A program made the translations under genes and the position numbers. Shown piece after piece: positions 9,001-30,012 of a DNA stretch of 64,000 nt. The DNA lies in contig CAVRAY010000001.1 of assembly GCA_963719225.1 (NCBI GenBank), forward strand, positions 1,408,001 through 1,472,000. Reading direction: 5' to 3'. This DNA comes from Thermoanaerobaculia bacterium. Lineage in GTDB: Bacteria; Acidobacteriota; Thermoanaerobaculia; UBA5066. Below the pieces are notes generated by a model. That model searched no databases. It had not been told where the DNA came from and worked only from the letters and a program-made list of their open reading frames with translations. Every line of letters starts with the position of its first letter. The first letter of the stretch is position 1.

Positions 9001-12000
9001 CTCTACGACGGCGCCGGCCGCCTGATCAAGGAGACCAGGCCGACCGGGGGCTCGACGAAATACGGTTACGACCTCGATGGCCGGGTCAAAGCCCGCGTGA
9101 CGGCGCAGGGGGGTGCCTCGGTCAGCGAGACGGACTACGGCTACGACGGCGCCGGGCGACTCGCGTCCATCCTGCGTCCGGACGGCACGACCGAGTCGTT
9201 CACGTACAACGGCGACGACACCGTCGACATGTGGACGAACCGCTCCGGAATCGTCGTCACGCATCGCTACGACGCGGCGAACCGACTCATCGGCCGATTT
9301 CCGGGCTCACGGCCAGCGGGTTCGAAGGTCGTGGTCGACGGCGGCGACACGTACGACTACGACGAGGCCTCGCGACTAAGGGCCGCGGACCGAATCGACA
9401 CGCCGACGGGCGCGCCTGGCGTCTTCGCCGCAAACGCTGCCGCGCGAGCCGCGTTCACGGGCTACGACGCGGCGGGCCGGCCCGCCGAGGAACGCATCGG
9501 CGCGCGCGACGCCCTCAAGCGCTTCTACGACACGTGGTCTCGTGAGGTCGCGGTGGGCGTGCCGGCCGGAGTCGGCCGCCACGGCGTGGGCTCGTTTTCC
9601 GGATACACGCGCGACTTCGACTCACTCGACCGCCTCGTGCTCATGACCGCGAACGCCGGCGGGCCGAAGCTCGGCGCGCGCTGGGATTGGGGCGGGACGG
9701 CGCGGCTCTATGGCATCACGACCGACAACGCACTGAAGACAGCGCACCGGATGAGCTACCTCGGCTCGGGTCTCGGCGCCCAACCGGGAGGCACCGTCGC
9801 GACCCCGTGGCAGCTCGGCACGATCTCGGTGGCGTCGGCGGACCCGAAGCAGCCCGTCACCGACGAGCCGACGACCCTGTGGGGTCAGTTCGGGTTCGGC
9901 TACCGCACGGGCGACGGCGTCAAGCGCGGCCGCGAGGTCATGGATCGCCAGACCGGCAAGCCCAGCCTCTTCTCGAATCAGGGCTGGTCGTTCACCCCCG
10001 ACAACGGTCTCAGGCTCCAGACCGCCGAGGCCGGCCGGGGCACCCGCGACGGCTCGTCGGCGCCTTCCATCTTCGAGAAGTTCGACGTGACCTATGGTCT
10101 CGGCGACGAAGTGAACCTCCTGTCGAGAGAGGGAGGCGCGAACTCTTCGACGCTCCTCGCCACCGGCGCCGAAGGCCGCATCGCGAAGCGAAACGGCATC
10201 GGCTTCGAGCACGACCTCGAAGGCAGAAGGCAGAAGGACGACCGCTTCAGCTACGTGTGGAGCTGGAGGGGAGAGCTCCTGTCCGTCACCGTCAACGACT
10301 GCTGGCCTGCCGAACAAGGCTCGCAGCCCACGTCCGGCTGTCCCGCCAACCAGTACGGCTCTCCCTACGCCAAACATCAGATCCGTTACGAATACGACGC
10401 TCTCGGAAGTCTACTGGCCCGCGAGCACCTCGGCGCGCAAGCCACGCCCGGCGACGACACCACGCGCTCCTTCATCGAAAGGCGCGAATACCTCTGGGAC
10501 GGCTCTCATCTCATGGCCGAGGTCGGAAAAGCTCAGGACGGCACACTTCGGTGGAGAAAGAGCTACGTCCCTGGAGCCTCGGGCCTGGACGACGCCGTCC
10601 AGGAGAGGATCGAGATCTACAGCCTCTCGGGCGTCGACGTCGTTTCGGACACGCTCTACACCTTCCTGAGAGACGAACAGAACTCCGTCGTCGCCCTCGT
10701 CGAAGAGAAAGTCGGAGCCGACCCAGCAAGCCCGCCCACCCCCGTCCGCTACCACTACAGCCCCTACGGCGAAGCCCACGCCGAAACCGGCTCCGAGCTT
10801 CTCTTGACCCGCTTCGACTCCAGCCTTCACGGCGTCACGAAACCCGACGGCACCACCGTCTCGCAGACGACCGCAGCTGACGCCGTCGACGGAGGAATCC
10901 GGCTCACCCTCACGCTCCCTCCCGACCCCTCGACCCTGGCCGCGGCCCTGCTGGTCGAAAAGAGAAATACCGACGGCACCTGGGGAGCCCTCAACGCGGC
11001 CGACCTGGCCCTCGGACAACGCGCGGGCGCCCCCGAAGAGCTCGAGCTCCTACCCCTGACGGGCTTCACGAAGGGCGCCACCTATAGAGTCGGATTCCAG
11101 AGCCTCAAGGACACGCTCGGCAGAACCGCAACCCTCCCGAACTTCGCCCTCGACATCCCGACGGACGGCACGCCCGTCCTTCTCGACAGAACCTACCCCC
11201 TCGTCTACGACAGCTACTTCGCGTCAGGGACGACCGCCTCAGGCGCATTTCCCGGCGGCCAGAACCTCCTCTTCCAGGGCCTGTGGACAGACCCCGTCAC
11301 GGGCATGGGCTACGCGAGAAACCGCTGGTACGACGCCAGAAACGCCGTCTGGCTCTCCCAGGATCCTCTCGAAGACAAGGACTCCCCGAACCTCTATGGC
11401 TTCGTCGGCGCTAGACCGCATGAACTAACTGACCCGATGGGAACTTGCGCGGAGCTCGATGACATTCCGTGCGGCGAGTACCTCAAGGAGTTCGGTGACC
11501 AGTTCCTCTTCCAGAACCTGTGGGAGACGACGAGGAGATCAGGGCGCTTCCTGCTCGGTGAAGGAAAGGGAGCGGTCAAGGCTGTTCCGAATCTGGCGAA
11601 GGGCGTCGCACATGTGGCGATGCATCCAGTGAAAACGATTCAGGCGCTCGGCACCGCAGCTGGTGAGGCAATCGCTGACCCGACGGGAACGGCGAAGCGG
11701 CTCGGCAATGCAGTGATGAACGCGGATCCCGACAAGGCGGCTGAATTCACTGGCGGTGCGCTGGCCTTGGCTGGGCTTGGCGCCGCGGCAAAGACCACGG
11801 AGGGCTTGGCAGCTCTTGGTCGACTCGGAAGGGCTGGTGAGGTCGTTGAAGCGGTAGATGCTGGCTCCAGCCTCGCAAAGTATGGTGACCTCGGTTACGT
11901 CGAGGGACTGGCTGCGAGAGCGAGCCGATTCGCGTTGAGGCGAGCCCAGGCAGGGGGAGCGACAGGCCGAGTCGCCGGGAGAAGAGCAGAGGAAATATTC

Positions 12001-12336
12001 GAGAAGTACGCCTATCAGCTCGAGCAACGTCTCATGGCTGCGGAGAGTCCCTTCCGCATCACCCTGCAGCCAGCAGCGGACGCCGCCACCGGTGCGCGGG
12101 CTCTCGCGCGAACACGCGGCTCCTTTGTCGGGCGATGGGTGAGCGGCACGAAGCGGTTGGACTATGGCTTCTACGAGTCTGTGTCGGGAGGAGCGAACTC
12201 TTCGCGGATTCTTTCGGGTGGTGATTTCACTGTGTCCCCGGGTGGCGCTTTTGGGATCCCGGCTGAGTATTCACAGGCATTCCCGGGCTCGACGATCTTC
12301 GGCATTGACCCTCTAAATATCGTTAAGGGACCATGA
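1..12336 (+). CDS. rhs: Giant Rhs/YD-repeat polymorphic toxin, 5'-truncated (>4100 aa): Ig-like/beta-rich N-terminal region, DUF6531-like segment, YD repeats, Rhs core, C-terminal toxin
   Basis: Frame is open from base 1 (the track starts it at GTG 70). Contains many YD/YxYD..GR repeats, SVSLVSGE...RTYRS...GWNSS, the core motifs YHYSPYGE and MGYARNRWYD...QDP...NLYGFV...TDPMG, then a divergent C-terminal tip. Confidence 0.95.
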   Translation, partial: GPAGSGLSATFAAGALSSPVDLGVRLTALSGQGLPEPLPLGWTPLAAAELRLVPGGVGDDALPEGTGTPFTANAVHLTLTLPSGVPSNAELFAARYDVAAGAWLALPIPVRATGAGGADTVTVALAGPGPVAVIAPDVDPATRPPVMPTSLDAPLIGTDLPSVLPALAAAIGLDPPIVSPTGRATARVLARSADGTTPWPSGLAVQAYLDEKLILSGGGELYEAPFSSDLILYHPPLAPADVGATAPGAVGSLTFRISPSPRAAQVLLDTGYENVRLFPFTDQLERGQVLGPAGGSVSSPDGVELFVPESALAQKAVVRARLLSSSELAALPVPAGYSLVAAVRVDLSGFPLARGATLKLNAPAGLPADAVDDPRLVLASFVDQPDDGRGAFARVVARVALLPAAGSVPAKLVGAPEVSGSTLPLSGITGEGVFLFLHANAPIGFVTGRVTAPNGAGYAGSRVTTPGLGTADLSQPGGLYALSAPAGSPTLNALHPTLGVSGTATVPSLPKGQIAQIDIILAPTPPRIVSLQPPAGATNQPVGTTVAILFSAPLDPASVTQTVLTVELANTDGTGTGLLFGGNVALSSDRTTVAFSSARPLPPGRTILASLKGGIRSFDGTPYAGTLPVTWTFTTSTAFLPGGNIHPEKIRLLLPVNGTAQIVGADSALPLVLGGTTPWSVWADVDGALACPSITTYPANTNGGFTATVGCPPTANVTLSSRVFIHVLDPTGTQAATWRLGPFVTPDGTGFVAPPGEETVFTTIDGIQVTSPAAAFDVPTLVKVTKKPVDSLGVAVNPGLEMAAVLDVDFEGTAHETLRLRIPVVTASPVGGVVFAGKPIDLPWGRKLQILDLGRLVDDGKGGKLISTLEADQPEDSAPDASTPASSAMAGSGHQALGGRRAQALPKKLLQSIALEFTARATAGFIMGATLELSAITGHVEPAIVGATFFVLYNALADAMVFQAVAKNWNGRFVLPSTGSAFTIVKRDLATGWILSEKSYSAIAPSPGRFVNLGDLEPAATDPPRLIDASPVAVIRFKAPTVLAGKEENLRLRLDVEAHSTDQDTTSLRAVPGEVLPDLSTVELYNLSQTSRAKAVVQAGDFNVGPLGAKSGEDLLAAVSPSDVDADDLSELSFSFSRPLASVADPATLVTLTDCGELNRSAPGPPACPSPLPVPLNVTQEANRTRLRAGLFGPLARGHLYRVELKSLTSDSTPSLAYPPTDPTVFSFATRSGQSGPIGSTVGSGVLALGDTNSARDLLKFGNLLLVGSASGKLLAMDASDPVKPVLFARLAPEAGDQLRAFASDGHNRLFYNTRLGASWAVKAVRVEDVWQALPSTCPQGLPSEPAWLTALPCFAAVPGGVKSAFALGSTTGLTPSEFLTLTGSLPTGTPSDLQILVDDDTVGPYPLEEFFDKVPGSGTPPSGPPSSPDQFYSISLTINTAGHVFDRGAGICGEPGFDKKQRVTIDDLTTGQSWSVDVPNPSTSGMSLAVAIRARKRDQIQVRYNKTAIGYLAIVGSGVSAFDLNRFYDTLTPATGGTQGNKSECGRRLGTFEGAGISFPTCGRVTPDSLAFTPALAVATGKGFIDVFSVLTHFGAGNLVAASGGPGSLQAIEMKCLVDTLPASTPTTPAPSPSYRAVTLALNTMWIDRHISPGPSPGSFVGPQTPVPPSGVRGDLAFYSLGPAGIDVYDVTGRGSMALIGRFWAKDHTVYRLASDAAGRRLFAGGQDKNGNPIIDVWDISQANGGPSKDGVFPDPAGSADTRLLFTLKAPWDTNHIGLEESTGFLYTWGVNGPGVEGGFVVPTRDPGFIFSGLYRPENESRAAGATPLPSVQVDTQDLVPLGVQTQVSTADEADPEKSKADERTATAAFKVRISLPGTLGEKLVAKVQTLRSLPDARFLSKDDVGPLVAAPGGGGWPERDVFVTLRRLVPVAGTSSDRLQQPFNLYESDEVVLLLADPRAKLAYWKSKQGLKSPAQVADEKTQCRRCGRPSYLPNDTGNTEIPVKELLAAGPWVRAYLAEPPGGDAPTAAALDFFRQQGDNFPAPSGAVQVSGHADEVPSPIQISLAEPALNPAVWSAEAGTSVSLVSGEAILAATDHAVEGRGVGFVFDRTYRSGVLGYGPLGAAGWNSSLFAHLRMLPHTGEMEFHDGGGRVWKFSPPALGGCVDVDHYESDGAFCIPKGLYVKVEVVGNGAAFRLVGRNHDTMLFDSNGRLLELSDRHRRGASDPSSQGNTLSLFYDGAGYLVRAEDELGRSYKFTYDQKPLFSGGAENPQYGLLTRIEDFATPPRVVGFIYDDLRRLLQVQLPDVTSSIAGSSYTQPTVLYHYDFTKALQDTAPLHGPDFPKFKLTGFRLPDAGADRVTLDYVPETGRVTSLAVPPSPPNSGTVAWQFQNPDPSSDAGPLNGISLVAPWQLRADYTFTSGRINTVSETVETLRGTDPSPPAGSDPPAVALTTTYVYLDDGRIDHITWPDGHVTRQDYQGTDRLEKANVSHVMAEAGGAPTGTAQHGTPTSEIRSYVDNIPETTADPEGRAVTSAVSVPSGSASPGYDAAPGQTAVSGNSKYDPFGRMKEFTGAGSNGTHVTMGFGKDAKGRPDRGFASEIARGAVKESLKYDEDGMGPRGNVTTRETSFQTSSKYEYDEWDRPVKETLGLSASGDFDAVPDAIVTRAFDPIGHLKVERRRQMDLDNGEVETVYEYNDREQLVSVTVNNLAQAAPGQTSGLATGKTRYSYNRSGQLSDVTSPHGVTTHYEYDAAGRVKSEQVSSSGIRKRAYDEMGRTVWMTDGDIGVWRGRFDAWGRMYQEDLPTGASIEREYDAAGGIKRETTFSGDPKSASSNKLAETLAHVTSFGAVNEVQEMLTASPASYRVTLKQYDGSGRLAGVTSGPTDAIQRTDLTVQYDDAGRPVVQTDGGNNETHHDYGGTAPWPVRTFVLEAVPGSPSRPKTVESEFRRDAFGRVVKETRSSGGTLVSIVQTGYDQVGNVKSVESGIGSRSEYLYDGAGRLIKETRPTGGSTKYGYDLDGRVKARVTAQGGASVSETDYGYDGAGRLASILRPDGTTESFTYNGDDTVDMWTNRSGIVVTHRYDAANRLIGRFPGSRPAGSKVVVDGGDTYDYDEASRLRAADRIDTPTGAPGVFAANAAARAAFTGYDAAGRPAEERIGARDALKRFYDTWSREVAVGVPAGVGRHGVGSFSGYTRDFDSLDRLVLMTANAGGPKLGARWDWGGTARLYGITTDNALKTAHRMSYLGSGLGAQPGGTVATPWQLGTISVASADPKQPVTDEPTTLWGQFGFGYRTGDGVKRGREVMDRQTGKPSLFSNQGWSFTPDNGLRLQTAEAGRGTRDGSSAPSIFEKFDVTYGLGDEVNLLSREGGANSSTLLATGAEGRIAKRNGIGFEHDLEGRRQKDDRFSYVWSWRGELLSVTVNDCWPAEQGSQPTSGCPANQYGSPYAKHQIRYEYDALGSLLAREHLGAQATPGDDTTRSFIERREYLWDGSHLMAEVGKAQDGTLRWRKSYVPGASGLDDAVQERIEIYSLSGVDVVSDTLYTFLRDEQNSVVALVEEKVGADPASPPTPVRYHYSPYGEAHAETGSELLLTRFDSSLHGVTKPDGTTVSQTTAADAVDGGIRLTLTLPPDPSTLAAALLVEKRNTDGTWGALNAADLALGQRAGAPEELELLPLTGFTKGATYRVGFQSLKDTLGRTATLPNFALDIPTDGTPVLLDRTYPLVYDSYFASGTTASGAFPGGQNLLFQGLWTDPVTGMGYARNRWYDARNAVWLSQDPLEDKDSPNLYGFVGARPHELTDPMGTCAELDDIPCGEYLKEFGDQFLFQNLWETTRRSGRFLLGEGKGAVKAVPNLAKGVAHVAMHPVKTIQALGTAAGEAIADPTGTAKRLGNAVMNADPDKAAEFTGGALALAGLGAAAKTTEGLAALGRLGRAGEVVEAVDAGSSLAKYGDLGYVEGLAARASRFALRRAQAGGATGRVAGRRAEEIFEKYAYQLEQRLMAAESPFRITLQPAADAATGARALARTRGSFVGRWVSGTKRLDYGFYESVSGGANSSRILSGGDFTVSPGGAFGIPAEYSQAFPGSTIFGIDPLNIVKGP
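10873..11350 (+). repeat. 478-bp rhs core segment, direct repeat of 26113-26590
   Basis: Identical by eye from gcagctgacgccgtcgac to aacgccgtct; offset 15240. Confidence 0.95.
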
Positions 12337-12806
12337 TCGAGATAGCTCCAGCGCAGATTCCCGACATTCGAGCTCGTTTGAAGAGTGCGTCAGCTGAACT
12401 AGGGGACGCATGGGCTCAGATGGAGTCGATCGAAGTACAGCCTCGTCGGCAGCAGGCTCCCTTCGTCCAGCTCGCGCACGACGAACTGCCTGGAGAGGAA
12501 ATTGACGCGATCCTCGCGTATGAGGGTATTCCACAATTCAACGGTGCCATCGGAATCCCTTTTCCGTCTCGGCCTGTCCAACTCGGTAAGAAGGAACTAC
12601 TCGTTTTTCCGATTGACGGGCTAAGAGAGCACCTGAGCTTGCACGAACCCGATCTTGTGGCGCGACTCCAGAAGAGTGGGGGCATGTCCGGCTACATCGC
12701 AGCCCAGCAGGGTGAAATCTCAGCCAGGGAGTATCTAATCGGTGGACTGCTGGAGTGCATCAATTACTGCGTCGAGAACCGCCAAGCGCTTGAAATCAAG
12801 TGGTGA
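12333..12806 (+). CDS. Putative immunity protein for the Rhs C-terminal toxin
   Basis: 157 aa, ATGA overlap with the rhs stop, lower GC, no recognised family. Confidence 0.75.
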   Translation: MIEIAPAQIPDIRARLKSASAELGDAWAQMESIEVQPRRQQAPFVQLAHDELPGEEIDAILAYEGIPQFNGAIGIPFPSRPVQLGKKELLVFPIDGLREHLSLHEPDLVARLQKSGGMSGYIAAQQGEISAREYLIGGLLECINYCVENRQALEIKW

Positions 12807-12921: not shown

Positions 12922-14361
12922 ATGAGTTGGTCCGAGGTGCAGCTCGCCTCACTGGCTGAGACCTACTTCCGGAGCGGCGGCGCGAGATGCCCGGGCGACA
13001 ACACGCCGCTGAAAGTGGAAAAGCTGCAATACGTCGGCAGGAAGACCGCGGATCTCTTCCTGCACTGTCGGCGCTGTGGCACGAGCGCGACTTGGGGAAA
13101 TCAGGAGCCCACGAGTGGAGCCGGTGTGTGGCCAGCGGCTGCCCGGAAACTGATTGTGGACAGCTACTGGGAGCACGGGTATGCGAACTGCCCAGTGGAC
13201 GGAGCGAATCTGACGGTCCACGAATCCCGGCAGCTGGGGAGCAAGGGTGGTGCGCACCTCCTCGTGCATTGCGTGCGCTGCGGGCGCCACTTTTCGGACG
13301 ACGGACAGGGCGAAGATCAGGAAGAAAAGGACCCTTTTCTCGCTAAGTACGAGGTCATCAGGTCACTCGGGAAAGGAGGGATGGCGACTGTCGACCTCGT
13401 GCGCGACAGGCGAACCGGTGACGAGCTCGCAGCAAAGACGATCGCGCCCGAGAGGGCACGTGAGGCTGGCTTCATCGAGCGTTTCCGTCGTGAGACGGGA
13501 ATCCTGCGAGGTCTCTCGCACCCGAACGTCGTGAAAATCATCGAGGAATTTACGCAGGGCGATCGTGCCACCTACGTCATGGAGTACCTGTCGGGCGGCG
13601 ACCTGGGGCAAGCCATCTCTGACCCGAATCGCGATGTGCACGCACTGGCGCAGCTCTTCGCGGACGCTGCGGAGGGCGTGACCCATCTTCACGGACGAGG
13701 TTTCATTCACCGCGACCTCAAGCCGAGCAACATCCTGATTGGGAATGAAGGGCGAGCGCGGGTCTCTGACTTCGGGCTGGCCATCCAGGCCGAAAGGAAT
13801 GAAGCGGTTACTCGCACGGGAGAATTTCTCGGCACGAAGATGTATGCCGCTCCCGAACAACTCCGCGGCGCGCGGGGCGTGAATGAGAAGGCGGACATCT
13901 ATTCCCTGGGCCTGATCGCCATTCAGGTCCTCAGCCGGAAGCTGAGTCAGCCAGAACTCCACCTCTGGACGGATGGAACTGATCCGGCGTCGCGTGCGCT
14001 CGCGAACGCCTTGAACCAGGATCCGGCGAAGCGCACTATCACCCCGAGGGAGCTCGCGTTGGCCGTGTGTGAACGGGTGCTGATGGAGATGGCCGTAACG
14101 GCGCAGCCGAGCCAGCAGCTCACAGCTGGCGAGAAGAACACGCTGCTGGAAATGATTCCGGACGACGACAAGGTGGACGAACACCTCGCGGCTCGCGGCC
14201 TCAGGCGCAAAGGGAAAGGACGTCCGCGTGCGGGGGAGCTTTACCTCGGCAGAGGCGGGCCGATGAGCGACGGCAGGGGCATCTATCGGCGCGAAGTCGA
14301 CAACACTCCGGGAAACGGATTCTCCGGCGCCGATCTCTTTGAGCTGCTGGAGCGGGGCTGA
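12922..14361 (+). CDS. Hanks-type Ser/Thr protein kinase with two N-terminal Zn-ribbon-like repeats
   Basis: LGKGGMATV, AAK, HRDLKPSN, DFG, APE and DIYSLG motifs; the N-terminus has CPxD-x~23-HCxxCG twice. Confidence 0.9.
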   Translation: MSWSEVQLASLAETYFRSGGARCPGDNTPLKVEKLQYVGRKTADLFLHCRRCGTSATWGNQEPTSGAGVWPAAARKLIVDSYWEHGYANCPVDGANLTVHESRQLGSKGGAHLLVHCVRCGRHFSDDGQGEDQEEKDPFLAKYEVIRSLGKGGMATVDLVRDRRTGDELAAKTIAPERAREAGFIERFRRETGILRGLSHPNVVKIIEEFTQGDRATYVMEYLSGGDLGQAISDPNRDVHALAQLFADAAEGVTHLHGRGFIHRDLKPSNILIGNEGRARVSDFGLAIQAERNEAVTRTGEFLGTKMYAAPEQLRGARGVNEKADIYSLGLIAIQVLSRKLSQPELHLWTDGTDPASRALANALNQDPAKRTITPRELALAVCERVLMEMAVTAQPSQQLTAGEKNTLLEMIPDDDKVDEHLAARGLRRKGKGRPRAGELYLGRGGPMSDGRGIYRREVDNTPGNGFSGADLFELLERG

Positions 14362-14448
14362 TCGGCTAAAGCAAGCGGCGCCGACGGTACGTCCGGGGCT
14401 CCGGCGTGCGAGGCGGACGAACTAAGCTCAAGGGATCTGTGACGGAGG

Positions 14449-14868
14449 TCAGCGGCTGGCACGTCTGCGGATGGAGAGGAGCACCTTCTCTATCTTCGCG
14501 GGCGTCCGTGTTTCGCACTCCCAGATCACGCGAACGGACCAGCCAGCGCGCCGGAGAGCAGCCGTCTTTCGGCGATCACGTGCGGCGTTTTCGGACCGCT
14601 TCTTCAGCCAGAAATCCGGATTTGTAGCAGGCACGACCTGCCCGTAGCGGCAGGCGTGCAGGTGCCAGAAACACCCGTGGACGAAGATGGCGGTGCCGAA
14701 CTTCGGGAAGACGAGATCAGGGCGGCCCGGGAGACCGGCACGATGAAGGCGGAAACGCATGCCCAGCCTGTGCGCGATGCGGCGGACGACGAGCTCGGGC
14801 GTCGTGTCGCGGCCGCGCACGGCCTGCATGTTTCGTCGGCGCTGCTCTGCAGTAAGGACGTCCGTCAC
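14449..14868 (-). CDS. vsr: Very-short-patch repair endonuclease
   Basis: MTDVLTAEQRRRNMQAVRGRDTTPE, LPGRPDLVF, FVHGCFWH and VIWECE motifs. Confidence 0.95.
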   Translation of the reverse strand: MTDVLTAEQRRRNMQAVRGRDTTPELVVRRIAHRLGMRFRLHRAGLPGRPDLVFPKFGTAIFVHGCFWHLHACRYGQVVPATNPDFWLKKRSENAARDRRKTAALRRAGWSVRVIWECETRTPAKIEKVLLSIRRRASR

Positions 14869-16030
14869 GAGCAGAGCGGACGGATCTTCTCGATGAAGCC
14901 CTCGACGGTCAGCAGATGTCGCCGGGTTTCGACGGGAAATTTCACGTGCAGAGGCTCGGGCACGACGAGCTGGACCTTCGCGTCACGCATCTCCTCGAGC
15001 TGTGCAGACGAGATGCCCTGCTGAATGGTGAGGATGTGCTTCAACGGGATACGGCGGGCCTCACGAACGACCTGTCGCCACCGGTCCTTGCACGTCGTCT
15101 TGACGCCGACGACGACGAGGCGATCATCGGGAAAGCTCTGCTGTCGGTACTGCTCTTCTCCAGGAATGATGATGTCGGGCCGGCCGTCCACGCCCCGTGG
15201 GCGCATCGTGTGTGGGATCCGCGCCTCGGAAAGGAGATAGTCCACGTGATTTTCGAGAGAGCGGCCGGCGCGCGACTTTCGACGATTCATGATGCGGCCG
15301 GCGGTGTCGAGAAAGTCGTCGACGTCGCGAAACGTCCGCGTGACCTCCGTCTGGCAGAGCTGGCGCTCCACGAGCCGAAAGAGCTTGTACTCAGCCTCGA
15401 CGAAATCGACGAGGCGCCGGTCAGGGCCAAGTGTGCGAATCGTTTCGATGCACTCGAGGAGCGCCTTGCGCGCCGCATCCGAGAATGCTCCACCCGTAGG
15501 GAAATTCGCGAGACCCGCAGCGAACGTCGGAAGTGTCGCTCGACACATGCGTCGGGCGACTCTACCTGCGGGACACCGCCACGGAAGACGGCCCACGTGT
15601 CGAGGATTGCGACGCCCAGGGCGCTCTGGACCTCGTCGATGTCGTCGTCGTGCTCGAGAACGAAGGCGCTGAATTCATGGAGCGATTTCGGGACGATGAC
15701 GAGCAGGTCTCCGACACATTCTTCGGCCATGAACGGAAAGCCCTTGCCGAACCGGGTGAGCCGATATTCGTTCTTCGCCTTTCCGTACCACTTAACGCGC
15801 GATTCGGTCGTGACGAGCCCGCCCTGCCACGTGACGCGCACCGTGCTCTCGTCGTTACGTCCCTTTTCGGGTCCGAAGGGGGCGAACAGCTCCCATGCCG
15901 ATATGGGCAGGTAATAGCCGTACTGATGGCCGCCTGTCAGGCCGACGTCATTAGGGGAAATGAACTTGAGGACCGCGTTTCCGTGCTCGAGCGCTTCTGC
16001 GATCGCTTCCTCGCAGGCGGGCGAGGGCAT
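14865..16030 (-). CDS. EcoRII-like type II restriction endonuclease (N-terminal effector domain plus catalytic domain), one frameshift near 15540
   Basis: N part has LKFISPNDVGLTGGHQYGYY and NEYRLTRFG; C part has NRRKSRAGRSLENH, RPDIIIPG and KTTCKDRWRQV. Confidence 0.88.
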
Positions 16031-16034
16031 TGCG

Positions 16035-17162
16035 TCAGGCTCTCTTACGCCCGTACTGGGCGAGGGGTGACTTCAGGAGGCAGCCCTTCTTTTCCAACTG
16101 CCAGCCGAGCGTCCGAAGGACTTCCCGGCCGACGGCCTCGACGACAGGAGGCACGACGGCGTTTCCGAACTGCCGATAGGCCTGCGTGTCCGAGACGACG
16201 ATCGGATACTCGTCGGAAAGCCCATGAGTCGCGCGCACTCGCGCGGCGTCAGGCGGCGTGGCGGCTTGCGCTTCCCCTGCGAGATGAGAATTTCGGAGCC
16301 GTCCTTGTAGTAGCGCGCGCTCAGCGTACGCGTGACGCCTCCGGGATCCGCGATTCCGAAGCCGAAACCGTTTCCCTTTTCCTTGTGGCGTCGCGCGTAT
16401 TCCTGGAGGTATGTCCAGAGGTGCTCGCTCAGCGTGTACTTATCCGGAGGATCTTTTTCCAGGATGTCCTGCAGCTTCGGGCGTGGGGCCTGTGGAGCTG
16501 CAGGGAACTCGAAGGGGGGAGCATCGCCGAAGACCCGGCGATCGAAGCAGACGATGAAGATGCGCTCCCTGTGCTGCGAGATCCAGGAAGCCGCATCGAT
16601 CACGGTGGCGTGGACCACGTAATCCAGATCCTGGAGCGTCTCGCGGATCACATTCCAGGTGCGGCCCGAATCGTGAGAGAGAGGATTTTTGACGTTTTCG
16701 AGGAGGGCGATCGGGGGCCGCTTCGCCTCGATCAGTGTGGCGAGCGTGAAGAAGAGATTCCCCGGTCGGCACACTTGAATCCGTGTGCGCGGCCGAGGCT
16801 CTTCTTCTTCGAGACGCCTGCGATCGAGAACGGCTGACATGGGAAGCCAGCAGCCATGATGTCGTGGTCAGGGATGTCTGGGAATTTCGGATGTCGCGGC
16901 GGCTCTTCTCGAACATGGTGACGTCTTCCGAGTACGGTCCACTCCGAGGAAAACACGCATGTGCCCGAGCCGCCGAGCGCGGTCTGAACCTCGATCCGGC
17001 GAAGAGATCGACGAACTTGAAGGGGAGAGCGCCGCACGGATTTCTCAACGACGGCGCCGGGCCGGAGAAGAGCGTCATCTGACCGCCGTCTGGGCCTTGC
17101 GCAGGACGACACGACGAACTCGCGTTTGGAGACGCCGTCACGGCAGATTCTCGCTGATCCAC
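16035..17162 (-). CDS. dcm: DNA cytosine-5 methyltransferase (Dcm/M.EcoRII-like), split over several frames by indels
   Basis: FVDLFAG, AGFPCQPFSIAGVSKKKSLG, LLENVKN, QHRERIFIV, TLSARYYKDGSEILI, PRRLTPRECARLMGF and SDTQAYRQFGNAV are spread over four track ORFs. Start codon uncertain. Confidence 0.88.
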
Positions 17163-17286
17163 GTGTCAACTCCGGGGTACGCCGGACAGCATGTCCGGCT
17201 ATGGCTGCCTCTGGGAAAGGACGATATCAGGAGATATCATGAATTCCCAGCGCCTCCTTCGAGAGGCTCGGAAAGGAGGAAATGAG

Positions 17287-19542: not shown

Positions 19543-19983
19543 TCAGCTCGCCTTGGCGAGGAAGGCGTCAATGGTCCTGAGGAGGGCCTGCTGATCACGC
19601 TTGGGGAGGCGCTCGAGGTCTTGAAGGCGCCTGAGGAGCCGGCGGTTTTTGATTGCGCCATTTCCCTTGAGTTTCTCGAGGCCGAGAAGCTCGTCGGCCG
19701 AGACACGCAGGACCCGGGTCAACTCGACGATCGCCTGGCCGTGGAGCCGCAGCTCCCCGCGCTCGTAGTCCGAGACGACCGGCTGGGCGACACCGAGATG
19801 CTCGGCCAGCTCCATCTGGGTGATGCCGCGCTCGCGGCGAAGCCGTGAGAGGCGCTCCCCGATGGACTCTTTGTTTTTCCCGTCCGGCCCGTCTTGTCTG
19901 CCACGCCCGAGGCCTCCGTCCAGAAGATCGACGGAACGATCGTAGGGCTGGATTCCGGATGGTCCTGGTCGGGCATGTCGCAT
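19543..19983 (-). CDS. XRE/Cro-C1 helix-turn-helix regulator
   Basis: IGERLSRLRRERGITQMELAEHLGVAQPVVSDYERG; divergent from the primase. The true start may be ATG 19976 with an indel in the A-run near 19875. Confidence 0.9.
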   Translation of the reverse strand: MRHARPGPSGIQPYDRSVDLLDGGLGRGRQDGPDGKNKESIGERLSRLRRERGITQMELAEHLGVAQPVVSDYERGELRLHGQAIVELTRVLRVSADELLGLEKLKGNGAIKNRRLLRRLQDLERLPKRDQQALLRTIDAFLAKAS

Positions 19984-20003: not shown

Positions 20004-20100
20004 AAAACCTATAAGTTTGGAACACGAAGAGGAGGGCCTGCGAAATGGCCACCCGGATCCCGAAAGCTCTTGACAGCCTCCGACGAGGCAGGTGACGGCG

Positions 20101-23100
20101 ATGCCCCGCATCCCGAACGATCTCCTCGAGCGCATCAAGCACGAGACGCCGCTGCGGCTCCTCGTCGAGCGCTCGGGCGTCGTGCTGAAGGTCTCGGGCG
20201 AAAACGTCATCGGCCTGTGCCCGATGCACGACGACCACGACCCGTCTCTCGTGCTGACGCCATCGCGCGGTCTCTGGCACTGCCTGGGAGCGTGTCAGGC
20301 CGGCGGCACCGTGATCGACTGGGTCATGAAGGCCGACGGCCTCGATTTCCGCGAGGCCGTCGACAAGCTGCTAGCCGAATTCTTTCCTTTAGAAGCCGCC
20401 TCTCTCATCAGGCACGCAGCCGTCACGGAGCAGGCCTGCCCGCTCGATCTCGACGCCGACGACCAGACGCTCCTCAACCAGTACGCGGATTTCTGCCACG
20501 AGCTTTTCAAGACGACAGCCGAGCCGAAGGAGTACGCGGCTAAAAGACGGATCGCGTCCGACGAGCTCGTCTCGCATTTCAAGCTCGGCTACGCGAATCG
20601 CACGCTCGGCCTCCGTCTCCCGAGCGTGCGAGCCAGAGCCGGCCTGGCGCTCCGTATGCGCTTGCAGTCTCTCGGCATCCTCCGCGGCTCGGGCCACGAG
20701 CATCTCGTCGGCTCTCTCGTCATCCCGATTAGGGACAGCGCCGGCAACGTCACGGGCATGTACGGGAGAAAGACGCGCAACGACCTCCGGACCGGGACAC
20801 CTGATCACCTCTATCTCCCTGGCCCGCACCGCGGAGTCTTCAACGTCGAGGCTTTCGCCGAATCGAAGACGATCATCCTCACGGAGTCGCTCATCGACAC
20901 GCTCTCCTTCTGGGAAAGCGGTTTCAAGAACGTCACGTGCGCCTATGGCGTCGAGGGCTTCACCGAGGAGATTCTCGGAGCCTTCTCTTTCCACGAGATC
21001 GAGCGCTGCTACATCGCCTTCGACCGCGACGAAGCCGGCGACCGTGGTGCGACACGCGTCGCCGAGAAGCTCATGTCGGCCGGCGTCGAGTGCTTCCGCG
21101 TCCTCTTCCCGAAAGGGATGGATGCGAACGAAGTCGCCCGGAAGATGCACCCGGCCGAGAAGACGCTCGGACTCTTCATCCGGAGCGCCGAGTGGATCGG
21201 CAAAGGAAAGGGCCCGGAGAGACCGAAGAGAACCGAGAGGCCGGAAGAGGCGGCTAAAGAAGAAATGCGGGCAGCGGCCGGGCGGCCGGCTGCGCGCATC
21301 GAAGAGTCACGTGCTGCCGCCCCTGCTCAACTTCTTTCTTTAGCGGCTCCTGCGCCGCTGCCCGAAGCGCTGGCGCCAGCTCGCGAGCACGACGAGGCGG
21401 CTAAAGAAGAAAGGCCGGCCACGAGTCTGACGGCCACCACCGATCTCGACGAATTCATCCTCGTGGAAGGCGACCGCCGCTATCGCGTCCGCGGGCTCCG
21501 GAAGAATCTCTCCTACGGCTCGCTCAGGCTGAACGTCTTCGTCTCGCGCGACGGGGACCTCTTCGACGAGAAGTCACCGCTGGCCGGCTTCTTCGTCGAC
21601 ACCTTCGATCTCTACGCGGCGCGTGCCCGTGCCGTCTTCGAACGCCAAGCGTCTCTCGAGATGGGCGTCGAGGAGCGCGTCATCAAGCACGACCTGGGCG
21701 CCGTGCTGAGGCGTGCCGAGGAGCTGCAGCAGGAAGCGATCACGAAGGCGCTCGAGCCGAAGGCGCGCCCCGTCCTCATGAGCGCCGGGGACACCGAAGA
21801 GGCGATGAGGCTCCTGCGTGACCCGAACCTCCTCTATCGCATCCTCCACGACTTCTCCCGCTGCGGCGTCGTGGGCGAGGAAACGAACAAGCTCGTCGGC
21901 TATCTGGCAGCCACGTCCCGAAAGCTCGATCGCCCGCTCGCCGTCATCCTCCAGTCCTCGAGCGCGGCGGGCAAGTCGTCGCTGATGGAAGCGATCCTGG
22001 ATTTCATGCCCGAAGAGGAGCGCGAGAAGTACTCGGCGCTGACCGGCATGTCCCTCTTCTACTTCACCGAAGAGAAGAGCCTCAGGCACAAGATTCTGGC
22101 TGTCGTCGAAGAGGAAGGCGCCGAGCGCGCCAGCTACGCGCTCAAGCTTCTCCAGTCGGAAGGCGAGCTGTCGATCGCGTCCACGGGGAAGGATCCGCAC
22201 ACCGGGCGTCTCGTCACGCAGGAGTACCGCGTCGAAGGGCCCGTGATGATTTTCCTGACGACGACGGCCGCGGTCGTCGATGAAGAACTCCTGAATCGCT
22301 GCCTCGTCCTCTCCGTCGACGAGAACCGCGAACAGACGAAGAGGATCCACGAGCTTCAGCGTCAGGCCGAAACGATCGAAGGGCTCCTGGCCGCTAAAGA
22401 TAAGAGCAGGATCGTCCGCCTCCACCGCAACGCGCAGAGGCTCATCAAGCCTCTTCTCGTCGCGAATCCGTACGCAGCCCGCTTGACCTTCCTCGACGAC
22501 AGGACGCGCACGAGGCGCGATCACGTCAAGTACCTGACCCTCATCCGGTCGATCGCGCTCCTGCATCAGCACCAGAGGGAAGTGAAGACGATCGAGCACG
22601 AGGGGAAGGTCGTCGAATACATCGAGGCGACGCTCGAGGACATCGGGACCGCCAACAGGCTCGCGGCCGAAGTCCTCGGCCGCTCTCTCGACGAGCTGCC
22701 ACCGCAGACACGTCGCCTCCTCGAGCTCCTCGAAATAATGGTGACGAAAGAGAGCGAGCGGCTAAAAGTGGGAAGGGCCGACTTCCGCTTCACGCGCCGC
22801 GACGTACGCGCGCGCACGGGCTGGGGAGACACCCAGCTGAAGGTCCACCTGAACCGTCTCGTCGAGCTCGAGTACGTGCTCATCCATCGTGGGGGCCGCG
22901 GGCAGAGCTTCGTCTTCGAGCTTCTGTACGAGGGCCAGGGGAAAGACGGCTCGCGCTTCGTGCCGGGCCTCGTGGATGTCGAGACCCTCGGGCGTGAAGC
23001 CGAGCGGGCGGGGAAGAACGATGAGCAGCCGGGCCTCGGGCGGCCCCTGGTCGGCGGGCGGTCGGACTCCGGTCGGGCTGAAGAGACGCCGGGCCCGCCC

Positions 23101-23247
23101 GCTCCTGCAACTGCTTTTCTTCCTTTAGTCGCCGCGCGTTTCGACGAGGCGCTACTCGGTGGCGACCCCAAGGTGTCGTCGTACCAGGCCGAGGCAGCTA
23201 AAGAAAAAAGCTATCGGCCGCGGCGCTACTTTCTGCGCGGTGCCTGA
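20101..23247 (+). CDS. DnaG-like primase (CHC2 Zn finger plus Toprim) fused to a C-terminal P-loop NTPase
   Basis: CPMHDDHDPSL...WHCLGAC; ILTESLID and IAFDRDEAG (Toprim); ILQSSSAAGKSS (Walker A-like) and VVEEE (Walker B-like); low-complexity linker. Confidence 0.9.
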   Translation: MPRIPNDLLERIKHETPLRLLVERSGVVLKVSGENVIGLCPMHDDHDPSLVLTPSRGLWHCLGACQAGGTVIDWVMKADGLDFREAVDKLLAEFFPLEAASLIRHAAVTEQACPLDLDADDQTLLNQYADFCHELFKTTAEPKEYAAKRRIASDELVSHFKLGYANRTLGLRLPSVRARAGLALRMRLQSLGILRGSGHEHLVGSLVIPIRDSAGNVTGMYGRKTRNDLRTGTPDHLYLPGPHRGVFNVEAFAESKTIILTESLIDTLSFWESGFKNVTCAYGVEGFTEEILGAFSFHEIERCYIAFDRDEAGDRGATRVAEKLMSAGVECFRVLFPKGMDANEVARKMHPAEKTLGLFIRSAEWIGKGKGPERPKRTERPEEAAKEEMRAAAGRPAARIEESRAAAPAQLLSLAAPAPLPEALAPAREHDEAAKEERPATSLTATTDLDEFILVEGDRRYRVRGLRKNLSYGSLRLNVFVSRDGDLFDEKSPLAGFFVDTFDLYAARARAVFERQASLEMGVEERVIKHDLGAVLRRAEELQQEAITKALEPKARPVLMSAGDTEEAMRLLRDPNLLYRILHDFSRCGVVGEETNKLVGYLAATSRKLDRPLAVILQSSSAAGKSSLMEAILDFMPEEEREKYSALTGMSLFYFTEEKSLRHKILAVVEEEGAERASYALKLLQSEGELSIASTGKDPHTGRLVTQEYRVEGPVMIFLTTTAAVVDEELLNRCLVLSVDENREQTKRIHELQRQAETIEGLLAAKDKSRIVRLHRNAQRLIKPLLVANPYAARLTFLDDRTRTRRDHVKYLTLIRSIALLHQHQREVKTIEHEGKVVEYIEATLEDIGTANRLAAEVLGRSLDELPPQTRRLLELLEIMVTKESERLKVGRADFRFTRRDVRARTGWGDTQLKVHLNRLVELEYVLIHRGGRGQSFVFELLYEGQGKDGSRFVPGLVDVETLGREAERAGKNDEQPGLGRPLVGGRSDSGRAEETPGPPAPATAFLPLVAARFDEALLGGDPKVSSYQAEAAKEKSYRPRRYFLRGA

Positions 23248-24284
23248 TGGCCCGGCGTGGCGAGAAGCGCGTGTGGGCCTTCTCTGAGGCCTCGGATCCC
23301 GGCGGCCTCGTCGCGCTGATGCGGCTCTGGATCGAGTCGCTGCGCGTGCGCGGAATCTCCGCGAACACTGTCGTGCACTACGAGTGGGAAATCTCCGGCT
23401 TCATTCTCTGGTGTCACGAACGTGGCCTCGTGAGACCGGGTGAGATCTCGCGGCCGATCTTCGAGCGCTACCAGCGCTTCCTCTATCAGTACCGCACGGG
23501 CCACGGCCGGCCGCTGTCATTCCGAAGCCAGTACAAGCGGCTCGCCGCGCCGAAATACTTCTTCCGGTGGCTCGCGAGACAGGGCTATCTCCCATCCAGC
23601 CCCGCGTCCGATCTCGACATGCCGCGGCTTGGCCGGCGTCTCCCACGCCAGATCCTCACGGCCTCCGAGGCCGAGAAGGTCCTCGCGCAACCGGACCTCA
23701 CCGACCCCGTCGGCATCCGTGATCGCGCGATCCTCGAGACTTTCTACTCGACGGGGATCCGAAGAGGCGAGCTCGTCAGGCTGAAGCTCTACGACATTGG
23801 CTTCGAGAAGGGCACGCTCATGATCCGAGAGGGCAAGGGCCAGAAGGATCGCGTCATCCCGATCGGTGAGCGCGCGCTGAAGTGGCTCGAGAAATATCTG
23901 ACGGACGTGCGGCCTCATCTCGTCGTGCCTCCTGACGAGAGCGTGGTCTTCCTGACGTACATGGGCGTGCCGTTTCATCCCGACGCTCTTGGCCACGAAA
24001 TGAAGAAGTACCTGCAGGCATCGGGCGTCGGAAAAGAAGGCGCGTGTCACATCTTCCGGCACACGATGGCGACGCTGATGCTCGACGGGGGAGCCGACAT
24101 CCGTTACGTCCAGGAGATGCTCGGCCACACGAAGCTCGACACCACGACGATTTACACGCAGGTGTCGATCGACAAGCTCAAGAAGATCCACGACGCCACG
24201 CACCCAGGAGCGCGGCTCACGCCGCGAGCCGTGCCGGACGCCGAGCCTCAGAGCGCGGCCGAGGACGAAGATCCTTTCCTTTAG
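23247..24284 (+). CDS. XerC/XerD-like tyrosine recombinase
   Basis: RDRAILETFYSTGIRRGEL, GKGQKDR, HIFRH and LGH...TTTIY (complete R-K-H-R-H-Y set); TGATG coupling with the primase. Confidence 0.95.
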   Translation: MARRGEKRVWAFSEASDPGGLVALMRLWIESLRVRGISANTVVHYEWEISGFILWCHERGLVRPGEISRPIFERYQRFLYQYRTGHGRPLSFRSQYKRLAAPKYFFRWLARQGYLPSSPASDLDMPRLGRRLPRQILTASEAEKVLAQPDLTDPVGIRDRAILETFYSTGIRRGELVRLKLYDIGFEKGTLMIREGKGQKDRVIPIGERALKWLEKYLTDVRPHLVVPPDESVVFLTYMGVPFHPDALGHEMKKYLQASGVGKEGACHIFRHTMATLMLDGGADIRYVQEMLGHTKLDTTTIYTQVSIDKLKKIHDATHPGARLTPRAVPDAEPQSAAEDEDPFL

Positions 24285-24315
24285 TCCTCGCGCCGCGCGA
24301 AAATAAGGCCGCTAA

Positions 24316-25794
24316 ATGAAGAACAGGGCGCGCATCGTCTCGGGCCTCGCCGCGCTCGCTGCACTCTTCCTGGCGCCGATCGCCGAGGCATCCCTCTCGC
24401 GCTCGAGCACGCCGGCGCGCGGGGCACCCGCAATCACGCTCGCATCGCCCGCGTCCGAGCCTTCCGAGTTTTCTCTCTTCGAAGGCGACGAGCTCACGGC
24501 CGCTACCGCCGAATCAGAAGGCTCGCCGAGCTTCCATCCTTTAGCTGCCGTCTCGCTCCTCGACGAGCGCGAGCAGCGCGAGCTCGCGACGCCCCTCGAG
24601 ACAAGTTATCCGAAAACTCGCTACCGGGTTTTCGACTTCCTCGGGGCGCCTCTCCTCGGAATCGAGCGCGGTGTAAGTCTCGAACTGCACTGGGGATGCG
24701 CGTCTTTTAGCTGCGGATTTGCATCTGGGACCGTGGGCTTCCTGACGGAAGACCCGCTCGACGACATCGACAGCCCGAACGTCTACGGGTTCGTGGCCGG
24801 CAGGCCGCACGAATTTACGGATCCGGAGGGGCTGTTCTCGAGCTTGAACGCAGCCAAGGAAGGAGCGAAGACCCTCGCCCGAAACCTCGCGATCATCGGT
24901 GGAATCGGGATCGTCACGGGCTTCTGTCCTCCTTGTGGAGCGGCGCTGGCGATCGGAGCGACGGGATATCTCGCTTACGGCGTTCAGAGCGACATCAACG
25001 ACCGTCTCAAGCAGGGTCAGAACGGAGCGCAGGCCACCGCCGGCGCCATGGGCAACCTCACGGGTATCGGAGGCATCACCGAAGGCATCACGAACAAGGA
25101 CTTCGTCACCGGCGCCGAGCTCAACCTCACGGACGAGGAACGAGAAAAGCGGGTAGGGCAGGGCGCCGGCAACCTCCTGAGCTGGTTCGCGGGCCCGAAG
25201 GTATTCAAGGTCGGAGCGAAGTTCGGCGCCGGCGCCAGAGTGAAGTTTGACGCGTGGCGAGCCAGCGAAAACACCTGGCCGTCGATCAAGCCGGAGGGCG
25301 AGTGGGAGTTTGAGTCGCCGGAATCCCCCGCGACGACGTCGAATTACATAGGTCCAGAACGCCAATTGGGCCCCGCCCGAACAGCGACTGAGATGCGTAA
25401 CTCCCCAGGCGTGGCAACGGGAGGCGAACGACTGCCGGAAGTCGGTGGCAAGTGGTTGCGAGGCCAGCGGAATAACGCAGGTGTGATACCGAGACAAATC
25501 GCTGACCAGCTGCGTGGCCGCTCATTCAACAGATTCAGCGAGCTTCAAAGTGAGTTCTGGAGCCTGGTTGCGGACGACCCAGTGCTCGCTTCAGGGTTTG
25601 GAAGACGAAATCTCGCTCGAATGCGCGCGGGGCGATCGCCATTCGCTCCCCCCGGAGAAAGCACCGGGCAAGGGTGGGCACAGAAGGTCTATAACCTCCA
25701 TCATCGGACACGGGTAGGGGAAGGAGGGGGCGTCTACGACCTTGATAACCTATTGGTGGGCACGCCTCGTTACCATCAGAGTTTCCATAGGTAA
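24316..25794 (+). CDS. Signal-peptide leader (~141 aa) fused to the Rhs core tail, a pre-toxin region and a colicin/pyocin-type HNH DNase
   Basis: MKNRAR-hydrophobic-AEA, then FLTEDP...NVYGFV...TDPEG; the C-terminus has IPRQIADQLRG, FWSLVADDP and YNLHH...GGGVYDLDNL...TPRYH...H. Confidence 0.88.
   Translation: MKNRARIVSGLAALAALFLAPIAEASLSRSSTPARGAPAITLASPASEPSEFSLFEGDELTAATAESEGSPSFHPLAAVSLLDEREQRELATPLETSYPKTRYRVFDFLGAPLLGIERGVSLELHWGCASFSCGFASGTVGFLTEDPLDDIDSPNVYGFVAGRPHEFTDPEGLFSSLNAAKEGAKTLARNLAIIGGIGIVTGFCPPCGAALAIGATGYLAYGVQSDINDRLKQGQNGAQATAGAMGNLTGIGGITEGITNKDFVTGAELNLTDEEREKRVGQGAGNLLSWFAGPKVFKVGAKFGAGARVKFDAWRASENTWPSIKPEGEWEFESPESPATTSNYIGPERQLGPARTATEMRNSPGVATGGERLPEVGGKWLRGQRNNAGVIPRQIADQLRGRSFNRFSELQSEFWSLVADDPVLASGFGRRNLARMRAGRSPFAPPGESTGQGWAQKVYNLHHRTRVGEGGGVYDLDNLLVGTPRYHQSFHR
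24738..25313 (+). repeat. 576-bp near-identical repeat of 26589-27164 (Rhs tail plus pre-toxin region)
   Basis: Offset 1851; a few mostly synonymous mismatches concentrated at the 3' end; ends at codons WEF. Confidence 0.95.
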
Positions 25795-25803
25795 GAGACG
25801 AAA

Positions 25804-26034
25804 ATGCCAGAAACGCTCTCGAGATCGCAGCTCATTGATTTAGTTCAGCGGATCATCGATGTCAAAGGAACTGAGGAAGAGATTGCGAGCTGGGTAGAGC
25901 TCGTGAATAGCATCGTTCCCCATCCCGACATACTCGAACTCATTTATTACGACGACCAGGAGCTTACGGCCGAGCAGATCGTCGACAAGGCACTTCAATA
26001 CAAGCCACGTGTGATCCCCCTTCCAGGGAAGTAA
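25804..26034 (+). CDS. Colicin/pyocin DNase immunity protein (Im7/Im9-like)
   Basis: 76 aa with HPDILELIYY...TAEQIV; follows the HNH toxin. Confidence 0.88.
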   Translation: MPETLSRSQLIDLVQRIIDVKGTEEEIASWVELVNSIVPHPDILELIYYDDQELTAEQIVDKALQYKPRVIPLPGK

Positions 26035-26112
26035 GGCGCCAGCCCGCGACAGCGGAATTCATACACACACGCCGGTTGTATGGGAGGGTCGGGCGTTTGT
26101 GTTTCTGACTAA

Positions 26113-27612
26113 GCAGCTGACGCCGTCGACGGAGGAATCCGGCTCACCCTCACGCTCCCTCCCGACCCCTCGACCCTGGCCGCGGCCCTGCTGGTCGAAA
26201 AGAGAAATACCGACGGCACCTGGGGAGCCCTCAACGCGGCCGACCTGGCCCTCGGACAACGCGCGGGCGCCCCCGAAGAGCTCGAGCTCCTACCCCTGAC
26301 GGGCTTCACGAAGGGCGCCACCTATAGAGTCGGATTCCAGAGCCTCAAGGACACGCTCGGCAGAACCGCAACCCTCCCGAACTTCGCCCTCGACATCCCG
26401 ACGGACGGCACGCCCGTCCTTCTCGACAGAACCTACCCCCTCGTCTACGACAGCTACTTCGCGTCAGGGACGACCGCCTCAGGCGCATTTCCCGGCGGCC
26501 AGAACCTCCTCTTCCAGGGCCTGTGGACAGACCCCGTCACGGGCATGGGCTACGCGAGAAACCGCTGGTACGACGCCAGAAACGCCGTCTTCCTGACGGA
26601 AGACCCGCTCGACGACATCGACAGCCCGAACGTCTACGGGTTCGTGGCCGGCAGGCCGCACGAATTTACGGATCCGGAGGGGCTGTTCTCGAGCTTGAAC
26701 GCAGCCAAGGAAGGAGCGAAGACCCTCGCCCGAAACCTCGCGATCATCGGTGGAATCGGGATCGTCACGGGCTTCTGTCCTCCTTGTGGAGCGGCGCTGG
26801 CGATAGGAGCGACGGGATATCTCGCTTACGGCGTTCAGAGCGACATCAACGACCGTCTCAAGCAGGGTCAGAACGGAGCGCAGGCCACCGCCGGCGCCAT
26901 GGGCAACCTCACGGGTATCGGAGGCATCACCGAAGGCATCACGAACAAGGACTTCGTCACCGGCGCCGAGCTCAACCTCACGGACGAGGAACGAGAAAAG
27001 CGGGTAGGGCAGGGCGCCGGCAACCTCCTGAGCTGGTTCGCAGGCCCGAAGGTATTCAAGGTCGGAGCGAAGTTCGGTGCCGGCGCCAGGGTGAAGTTTG
27101 ACGCCTGGAGGGCCAGCGAAAACACCTGGCCGTCGATCAAGCCGGAGGGCGGATGGGAGTTTGACTTAGGATCGGCTCCGGCCGGCCCGCACCAAATGAC
27201 TGGGCGGGTTGTCCGCGGCGCAGAAGTTCTGGAGGAGGCTGAGTTCACAAGTGGTGGCAGTAGTGGTCGAAAAAACTGGCAAGAACAGCAGGGGCTCCAT
27301 ACTGAGCGGAAGTTCCTTCAGCGAGCTGAAGTGCTCGTTGAACCGGGTGTTAGTCTAGAAATGGAGGGAAGCCTCGACCCCTGCCGGTCAGGTTGCGCCC
27401 GAGCGATCCGCGACTTCGTAGATGTCTATGATTCGACGGCCAAATACAAGGCTTCCTCAACTGGCAGAGAATTTCGGTGGACGCCACGAGCCCCCGGTAG
27501 GCTGATGGGAACCGTGCTGCAGGAGCAGTTCCAAGACGGTCAACTTGTCGGTCGTTGGCGATACTGGCGAACGCCGGCAGGAAGGTGGCGGCGGGCGCCT
27601 GTTCCGTTCTGA
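26113..27612 (+). pseudogene. Orphan Rhs module: partial core, pre-toxin region and deaminase-like toxin
   Basis: Starts abruptly in the duplicated core with no proper start (internal ATG 26545). Tip has HTE...PCRSGC, a Zn-deaminase HxE/PCxxC-like motif resembling the Pput_2613-like clade. Confidence 0.8.
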
Positions 27613-29973: not shown

Positions 29974-30012
29974 GCGCCCTTTATCGGATAATCTCCCCTC
30001 GGAGGCCCCTCC

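Follow-up and report, generated by a model that had tools for sequence, protein, structure and literature searches.

The window, as we call the whole 64,000-nucleotide stretch of a Thermoanaerobaculia genome analysed here, contains an Rhs gene interrupted by a 13.4-kb mobile element. The element brings a new in-frame toxin tip, and the old C-terminus is pushed downstream. The 4088-residue Rhs frame is followed in order by cargo, an XRE regulator, a primase, a tyrosine recombinase, the second Rhs C-terminus, its immunity gene and an orphan Rhs module (Table 1).

An intact empty site lies in the orphan module, with its CT at 26589-90. The module is identical to the left flank over 478 bases upstream of this site and to the right flank over 216 bases downstream of it, so that the junctions used in a first-pass annotation of this DNA are real. 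The two element ends have just CT in common (11349-50 and 24738-39); together with the empty site preserved in the orphan module, this delimits the element as 11351-24739.

RHS repeats, DUF6531 and the Rhs-associated core were detected in the Rhs gene, and no Pfam family matched its incoming C-terminus (11353-12336). The C-terminal part of the primase has a P-loop-like motif and no Pfam match. The cargo looks defence-like; two of its genes, the EcoRII-like endonuclease spread over two frames and the fragmented C-5 methylase, are split by mutation or sequencing error. The orphan C-terminus (26803-27612) matched no Pfam family and is followed by a SMI1/KNR4-like gene scoring below cut-off. A similarity search of the same genome found no second copy of the element; two more Rhs core ends, about 63% identical, lie at approximately 550000 and 555400 of contig G000:C2, with no module match nearby.

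Table 1. Features of the element and its surroundings, in window coordinates
Feature	Position	Strand	Remarks
Rhs gene, 4088 aa	70..12336	+	Host core to 11349; C-terminus beyond is element-borne
Host left half-site at attL	11339..11349	+	Weak likeness to the element's left arm, 4/11 pairs
attP 6-bp spacer	11350..11355	+	Presumed top-strand crossover at its left edge, 11349/11350
attP core right arm	11356..11366	+	Contains TCCCAG (11356-11361); codes S-Q-D-P of the Rhs core end
Putative immunity gene of the new C-terminus	12333..12806	+	Assigned by position; no Pfam match
Cargo: Ser/Thr kinase (+); Vsr, EcoRII-like endonuclease, C-5 methylase (-)	12922..17169	+ and -	From Pfam and ORFs
XRE/Cro-type regulator	19543..19983	-	Divergent from the primase
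CHC2 zinc finger/Toprim primase	20092..23247	+	Long C-terminal part
XerC/D-like tyrosine recombinase	23247..24284	+	NCBIfam NF002331 (PRK01287)
Element-supplied leader fused in frame to the displaced C-terminus	24316..25794	+	Colicin/pyocin DNase domain
Right-end module, fixed length	24613..24729	+	Box 1 24613-32, TAAG 24674-77, box 3 24687-95
Right-end module, continued			+	TTAGCTGC 24707-14, box 4 24721-29; box 2 degenerate in the window
Hexamer CTGGGA of the first-pass annotation	24725..24730	+	Tail of box 4; overlaps the true left arm
attP core left arm	24728..24738	+	8/11 bases complementary to 11356-11366
attR host spacer (24739-44) and host right half-site (24745-55)	24739..24755	+	
Colicin/pyocin-type immunity gene of the displaced DNase	25804..26034	+	
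Orphan Rhs module	26113..27612	+	Carries the empty site, 26579-26606

The element family and its right-end module

Relatives of the element were drawn from genomes, metagenomes and plasmids, the closest coming mostly from Thermoanaerobaculia or Acidobacteriota; a match at E 1e-80 or better occurs in 25 of the 301 genomes of the class. They are inserted in Rhs and haemagglutinin-type toxin genes at many positions, replacing the C-terminus, and the targeted motifs include WLSQDP/FLSEDP, RARYY, SGKERD, DANGN, YVRNDP, GLWTDP, DPWG and others. On annotated plasmids the same three genes (regulator, primase and recombinase) stand behind haemagglutinin-type genes, often in tandem. In the viral contigs scanned, none of the recombinases at the 38 loci recovered exceeded 34% identity. 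Elements (each carries an L number) also stand in tandem, two to four in a row, at L054/L055 (G299:C50), L004/L003 (G019:C2), L212 and L213, and natural joints of arm to C-terminus occur in such arrays (L004). Four metagenome contigs of 7-10 kb (L085, L130, L135, L138) have terminal repeats of 99-123 bases and each hold about one element, with an arm-to-C-terminus joint of this kind where they close on themselves; they are candidate free circles or collapsed tandems, which cannot be told apart.

A fixed-length module of about 130 bp lies 3′ of the recombinase gene and contains four direct-repeat boxes with the core GCRTCNGG, about 33-36 bp apart. An ungapped alignment of 57 modules has the same box spacing; because the anchoring of box 4 penalised departures from offset 108, counts of its offset hold partly by construction. 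The boxes are about three helical turns apart, and they are conserved while the core arms described below vary. To the right of the core lies toxin coding sequence, with no conserved box within the 45 positions examined. The element holds 12 of the window's 13 matches to TTAGCNGC, against 3.6 expected in all; these matches (17609-24714) fall mostly within the primase gene, on the minus strand. Rfam gave no matches up to E 5 in window positions 10000-30000, a promoter and terminator scan of 24200-24900 found none, and the module profile detected no module in the Ralstonia, Pseudomonas and Enterobacter plasmid regions. Small genes, toxin-antitoxin-type or other, often stand between recombinase and module (L211, L212, L021, L023, L024, L028).

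The element's right end (24316-24738 in the window, where it begins like a signal peptide) is also a leader. Among elements with a recognisable target frame (15 had none), and with the frame chosen by a motif rule, it is an open frame running into the displaced C-terminus in 37 of 41, compared with 20 of 82 other frames. The module frame is open in either codon phase, and a hydrophobic, signal-peptide-like stretch is present in 15 of the 41. The leader may keep the old toxin and its immunity gene expressed, or may re-route secretion.

Arm pairing, crossover point and recombinase

Across 48 related elements the site formed by joining the two ends has an element-specific inverted repeat, an 11-bp arm, a 6-bp spacer and an 11-bp arm, whose arms covary. 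The 48 were left from 66 modules after 8 with a doubtful box 4 and 3 that were too short had been dropped and 7 near-duplicates merged; in most of the junctions entering these tests attR stands in for attP. Among the 56 elements outside the window's clade, 280 of 616 positions are paired in the 11-6-11 register (45% against 29%, z 9.1). In a numbering that starts at the first base of box 4, a scan of every register places the signal at positions 8-18 pairing with 35-25 (z 8.0; neighbouring register 4.0). An all-against-all scan in 8-base windows has the same top signal, 8-18 with 25-35 (z 7.7, n=48, null maximum 5.15), and besides it only the neighbouring register exceeds the null 95% level. 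With one element per class (n=24) z is 5.9 and 5.0, against a null 95% level of about 4.3; with that element randomly chosen, z 5.0 is equal to the largest null value and does not exceed it. Ten elements fetched later (17 modules less 7 near-duplicates) gave 52 of 110 paired positions against 31% (p 0.0008). A search for guide-like direct or inverted matches between repeat module and target found nothing above the null except the 11-6-11 repeat.

No one sequence is shared by the arms across elements, and at most positions each of the four pair types is seen: the arm pairing is covariation rather than conservation. At position 10/33, for example, the window has A-T and L190, which uses the same target motif, has G-C. 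The window's attP pairs at 8 of 11 positions, which at fixed geometry has a chance of 0.3%; its close relatives pair at 8-9, and L001, cut by a contig end, at 6. L055 is perfect (11/11) and L200 has a perfect run of 7. Pairing is otherwise imperfect, with at most 3 of 11 pairs in 11 of the 56 elements and 3 to 5 in the RARYY-target clade. In G299, where the site is a perfect 11-6-11 repeat, the sequence that follows has no recognisable Rhs core.

Throughout the family the crossover falls at one point, the left edge of the spacer. Element and host copy agree at position 18 in 7 of 19 pairs and at position 19 in all 19; these pairs were hand-picked from copies similar to the right of the crossover, and what they tell is limited to how sharp the step is. 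Chance-level matches, module tandem repeats, L061-L063 and L098 were omitted from this set, and L055 was shifted by one base. The edge visible in the junctions is the left one, and a spacer of 8 bp may fit as well. The first-pass annotation had suggested that the site could explain a tiny homology requirement; the tiny homology is peculiar to the window, since the 6-bp spacer is identical in 16 of the 19 pairs. The window's attP and attR host spacers differ at 3 of 6 bases; L058 and L100 have 2 mismatches each. The host's left half-site matches weakly (71 of 209 positions in the 19 pairs, 34% against 28%, p 0.03). In the 13 upstream copies this host-side dyad reaches 43 of 143 (p 0.27), and the window's empty site has 3 of 11 pairs in the 11-6-11 register.

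The recombinase scores 410.8 bits with NF002331 (cut-off 371). Its residues R172, K197, H268, R271, H294 and Y303 are invariant in 10 homologues, leaving the R-K-H-R-H-Y set intact, and its best solved relative is XerD (E 9e-47). It falls below the equivalog cut-offs for XerC (TIGR02224, 235 against 335) and XerD (TIGR02225, 231 against 330) and below that for integron integrases (TIGR02249, 102.9 against 265). Its Pfam domains are just the SAM-like (24-113) and catalytic (136-307) ones; Pfam detects no N-terminal arm-binding domain.

Arm similarity is 0.82 and 0.88 above 80% recombinase identity and near chance below 70%. Among 38 recombinases less than 80% identical to one another, only columns 246 and 93 of 345 beat the permutation 95% maximum; the permutations ignore the tree, and the links of both columns to the arms may therefore be inherited. 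In the alignment, the XerD helix MTRQTFWH is the counterpart of column 246, and the start of the last helix of the preceding domain that of column 93; we take these to be the DNA-reading helices J and D. Residue 246 tracks arm positions 11-14 and 29-32. In the portions of PMC5241119 available, XerH inserts N-terminal helices and a catalytic-domain helix into the major groove of the arms around a 6-bp centre, and reads chiefly the inner 5 bp of each arm, in contrast to the positions that residue 246 tracks here. That arm sequence follows recombinase phylogeny and residues 246 and 93, in helices predicted to contact DNA, is suggestive only.

Readings of the site and the proposed exchange

We consider it likely, with good confidence, that the joined ends, as an imperfect 11-6-11 repeat (24728-24738, 11350-11355, 11356-11366), serve as a double-stranded core site, which the element's own XerC/D-like recombinase binds and cuts, and that the dyad drawn in the first-pass annotation is an off-register echo of it. 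That dyad, CTGGGA (24725-24730) and TCCCAG (11356-11361), is present at these coordinates, and the 14-bp spacer between the hexamers, the shared CT and the bulged extension were all verified in the joined form. It is not special: joins made at random from window sequence give a perfect dyad of at least 6 bp near the junction in 4.4% of cases, and under a stricter geometry in 1.6%. The conserved dyad is centred 4 bp to its right, and the right arm is common to both. The 6-14-6 dyad stems from a repetition of TGGG in the left part, at 24726-29 and at 24734-37, either copy being able to pair with the right arm. The core dyad is real; the earlier observation is partly confirmed and its interpretation partly supported, the drawing being four bases off and having the wrong left arm. 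Covarying arms do exist in homologous elements, but in the 11-6-11 register; in the 6-14-6 register 84 of 336 positions pair once the window's clade is set aside, 25% against 21.5% permuted (z 1.7). A contrary result comes from the 19 hand-picked pairs, where this register reaches 41 of 114 (z 3.05), the window and L004 supplying 12 of the 41.

It is highly improbable that the 6-14-6 dyad is itself the functional site in the window's clade. L003, L004 and L074 retain the full six pairs and L001 retains five, where the chance for one join is the 1.6-4.4% given above; these relatives have no compensatory change, and none of the 56 elements outside the clade keeps five or six pairs. Among the 48 de-duplicated elements, five or more are kept only in the window's closest relative. 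L190 and L202, with the same target motif and recombinases 63-64% identical, keep 1-2 of 6, and 2 of 6 pairs were present when the displaced host end recombined. The left hexamer is the 3′ end of box 4, a family-wide direct repeat, and the right one consists of S-Q codons and belongs to the 11-6-11 arm. Characterised tyrosine-recombinase sites have spacers of 6-8 bp, which 14 bp far exceeds. The arms could instead covary as the stem of a folded single strand, read by shape in the manner of integron attC or CTX-phage attP, which would predict the same complementarity. This was the other suggestion of the first-pass annotation, and we judge it improbable. True sites do fold better than partner-swapped controls (-2.95 against -2.06), the element-encoded primase could expose single strands, and the window's mismatched spacer would be accounted for by one exchange with replicative resolution. 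A hairpin substrate, however, is expected to favour one strand, and mismatches show no such bias (58 G.T, 63 A.C), so that this reading is not supported. Both strands fold equally weakly (-2.95 and -2.93), in 20 of 58 sites neither strand folds more stably than -2 kcal/mol, the sequence of the arms goes with recombinase identity, and the integron-integrase score is well short of its cut-off. Moreover, the window's empty site folds better as a single strand (-6.5 and -7.8 kcal/mol) than its attP (-5.0 and -4.7). Said earlier to show no symmetry, the empty site has 0 of 6 pairs in the 6-14-6 register, yet it contains a perfect 7-bp inverted repeat (26587-26593 with 26598-26604).

A further alternative touches only the claim of heterology and not the dyad: the window's mismatched attR may be chimeric through assembly, or may have arisen later by rearrangement between repeats, the true partner having had an identical spacer. 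The rule of identical spacers in the 19 pairs speaks for it, as do the long near-identical repeats of the region and the split cargo genes, which suggest indel errors; besides, a search of sequencing runs yielded no reads of this element, four runs with 6-7% of the sequence words being set aside. We nevertheless regard it as unlikely. The switch falls exactly at the family-wide crossover with 2 bases of identity, a place that homologous recombination or repeat collapse would not choose, and spacer mismatches are present in L058 and L100 too.

On the preferred reading, that of a recombinase-bound 11-6-11 core, two recombinase monomers would bind the arms of the circular attP form, and exchange of the top strands at 24738/11350 against the host site would give the observed junctions. 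An attP with two good half-sites would recombine with a toxin-gene site of one good and one poor half-site. The arm sequence that a recombinase reads would differ from lineage to lineage, residues 246 and 93 being part of the cause, and the left arm would therefore evolve to mirror the conserved toxin-gene motif that is targeted. The least certain step is the event through a spacer mismatched at 3 of 6 bases. It would need tolerance of heterology or a single exchange resolved by replication; this is suggested by the contrast between the window's spacers and the identical ones of most pairs, unless attR is mis-assembled.

Taken together, these observations may describe a widespread, apparently undescribed family of integrative elements whose dedicated role is to exchange polymorphic toxin tips. 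Changes in a few DNA-reading residues would have retargeted the Xer-like recombinase many times, to different conserved motifs of Rhs and haemagglutinin-type genes, the left half-site rewritten to mirror each target and a mismatched spacer tolerated, and the displaced toxin would be given an in-frame, often signal-peptide-like N-terminus that keeps toxin and immunity gene expressed. We give this joint reading an even chance.

How Rhs and CDI C-termini are exchanged with little homology is a long-standing question. For one exchange route a base-exact site, a likely enzyme and a family-wide rule are now mapped, which makes that route testable with a two-plasmid assay. The core site, likely recombinase-bound, would allow these elements to exchange toxin tips at a wide range of positions. 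The family offers 38 or more divergent recombinases, each with its own half-site, as a natural series for the study of specificity change in tyrosine recombinases.

Comparison with known systems

P4-like satellites and PICI have a primase, an integrase and a divergent regulator, all of which are present in the element. Orphan displacement at Rhs and CDI loci likewise puts a new toxin tip in place of the old, and the old tip stays downstream together with its immunity gene; here, in contrast, a dedicated element makes the swap at a fixed base. Integron attC and the single-stranded attP of CTX phage combine a covarying dyad with tolerance of little homology. The present site differs from both in having no strand bias, weak folding and no integron integrase, and an attC-type substrate was rejected, given the lack of a strand-biased stable hairpin and the recombinase score below the integron-integrase cut-off. 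A lambda-type attP was rejected on the missing arm-binding domain; of the accessory direct repeats that such a site carries on both sides of the core, four boxes are seen on the left. Chromosomal XerC/XerD acting at dif, or an IMEX, was likewise set aside, given the equivalog scores and arms without conserved sequence.

Features of the dif kind are nevertheless present: the arms are inverted and some 11 bp long, the crossover lies at one edge of a 6-bp spacer, and the catalytic residues are intact. Identity of the two partner spacers, a further such feature, holds in 16 of 19 pairs but not in the window. As described in the accessible parts of PMC5241119, difH has two arms around a 6-bp centre, and XerC/D-dif and XerH-difH likewise combine inverted arms of about 11 bp and a 6-bp centre with a simple recombinase that has no arm-binding domain. 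Unlike dif and difH, the present system has an element-encoded recombinase, arms that vary freely between lineages, a target inside toxin coding sequence and a good match at only three of the four half-sites. From their descriptions in the available parts of PMC8138268, the simple-recombinase elements of the IntBrujita and IntKX groups are likewise mobile and Xer-like; they are located on mycobacterial phages and gammaproteobacterial ICEs, the IntKX ICEs being reported without Xis. Rhs, primase and hemagglutinin do not occur in the main text of that paper. PMC3482391, in the parts seen, mentions XerC/D only beside polyimmunity loci, and the accessible parts of PMC2935973 and PMC10210955 have no bearing here. 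The full-text literature covered, which lies largely outside the subscription journals, has no account of the element's att site or its retargeting; the clade may be listed in Additional File 1 of PMC3482391 or among the PMC8138268 datasets.

A precedent for the gene neighbourhood is PMC1891008, which in the portions available describes SymE/cHTH/primase-helicase islands adjoining Rhs/haemagglutinin genes: the neighbourhood is the same, with a Cro-type regulator, a DnaG-type primase-helicase and the Rhs/haemagglutinin gene. Its main text names no recombinase or integrase, and the available part of its island section no att sites or C-terminal replacement. By these accounts the geometry of the site is of a known kind, and the gene neighbourhood had already been noted in PMC1891008.
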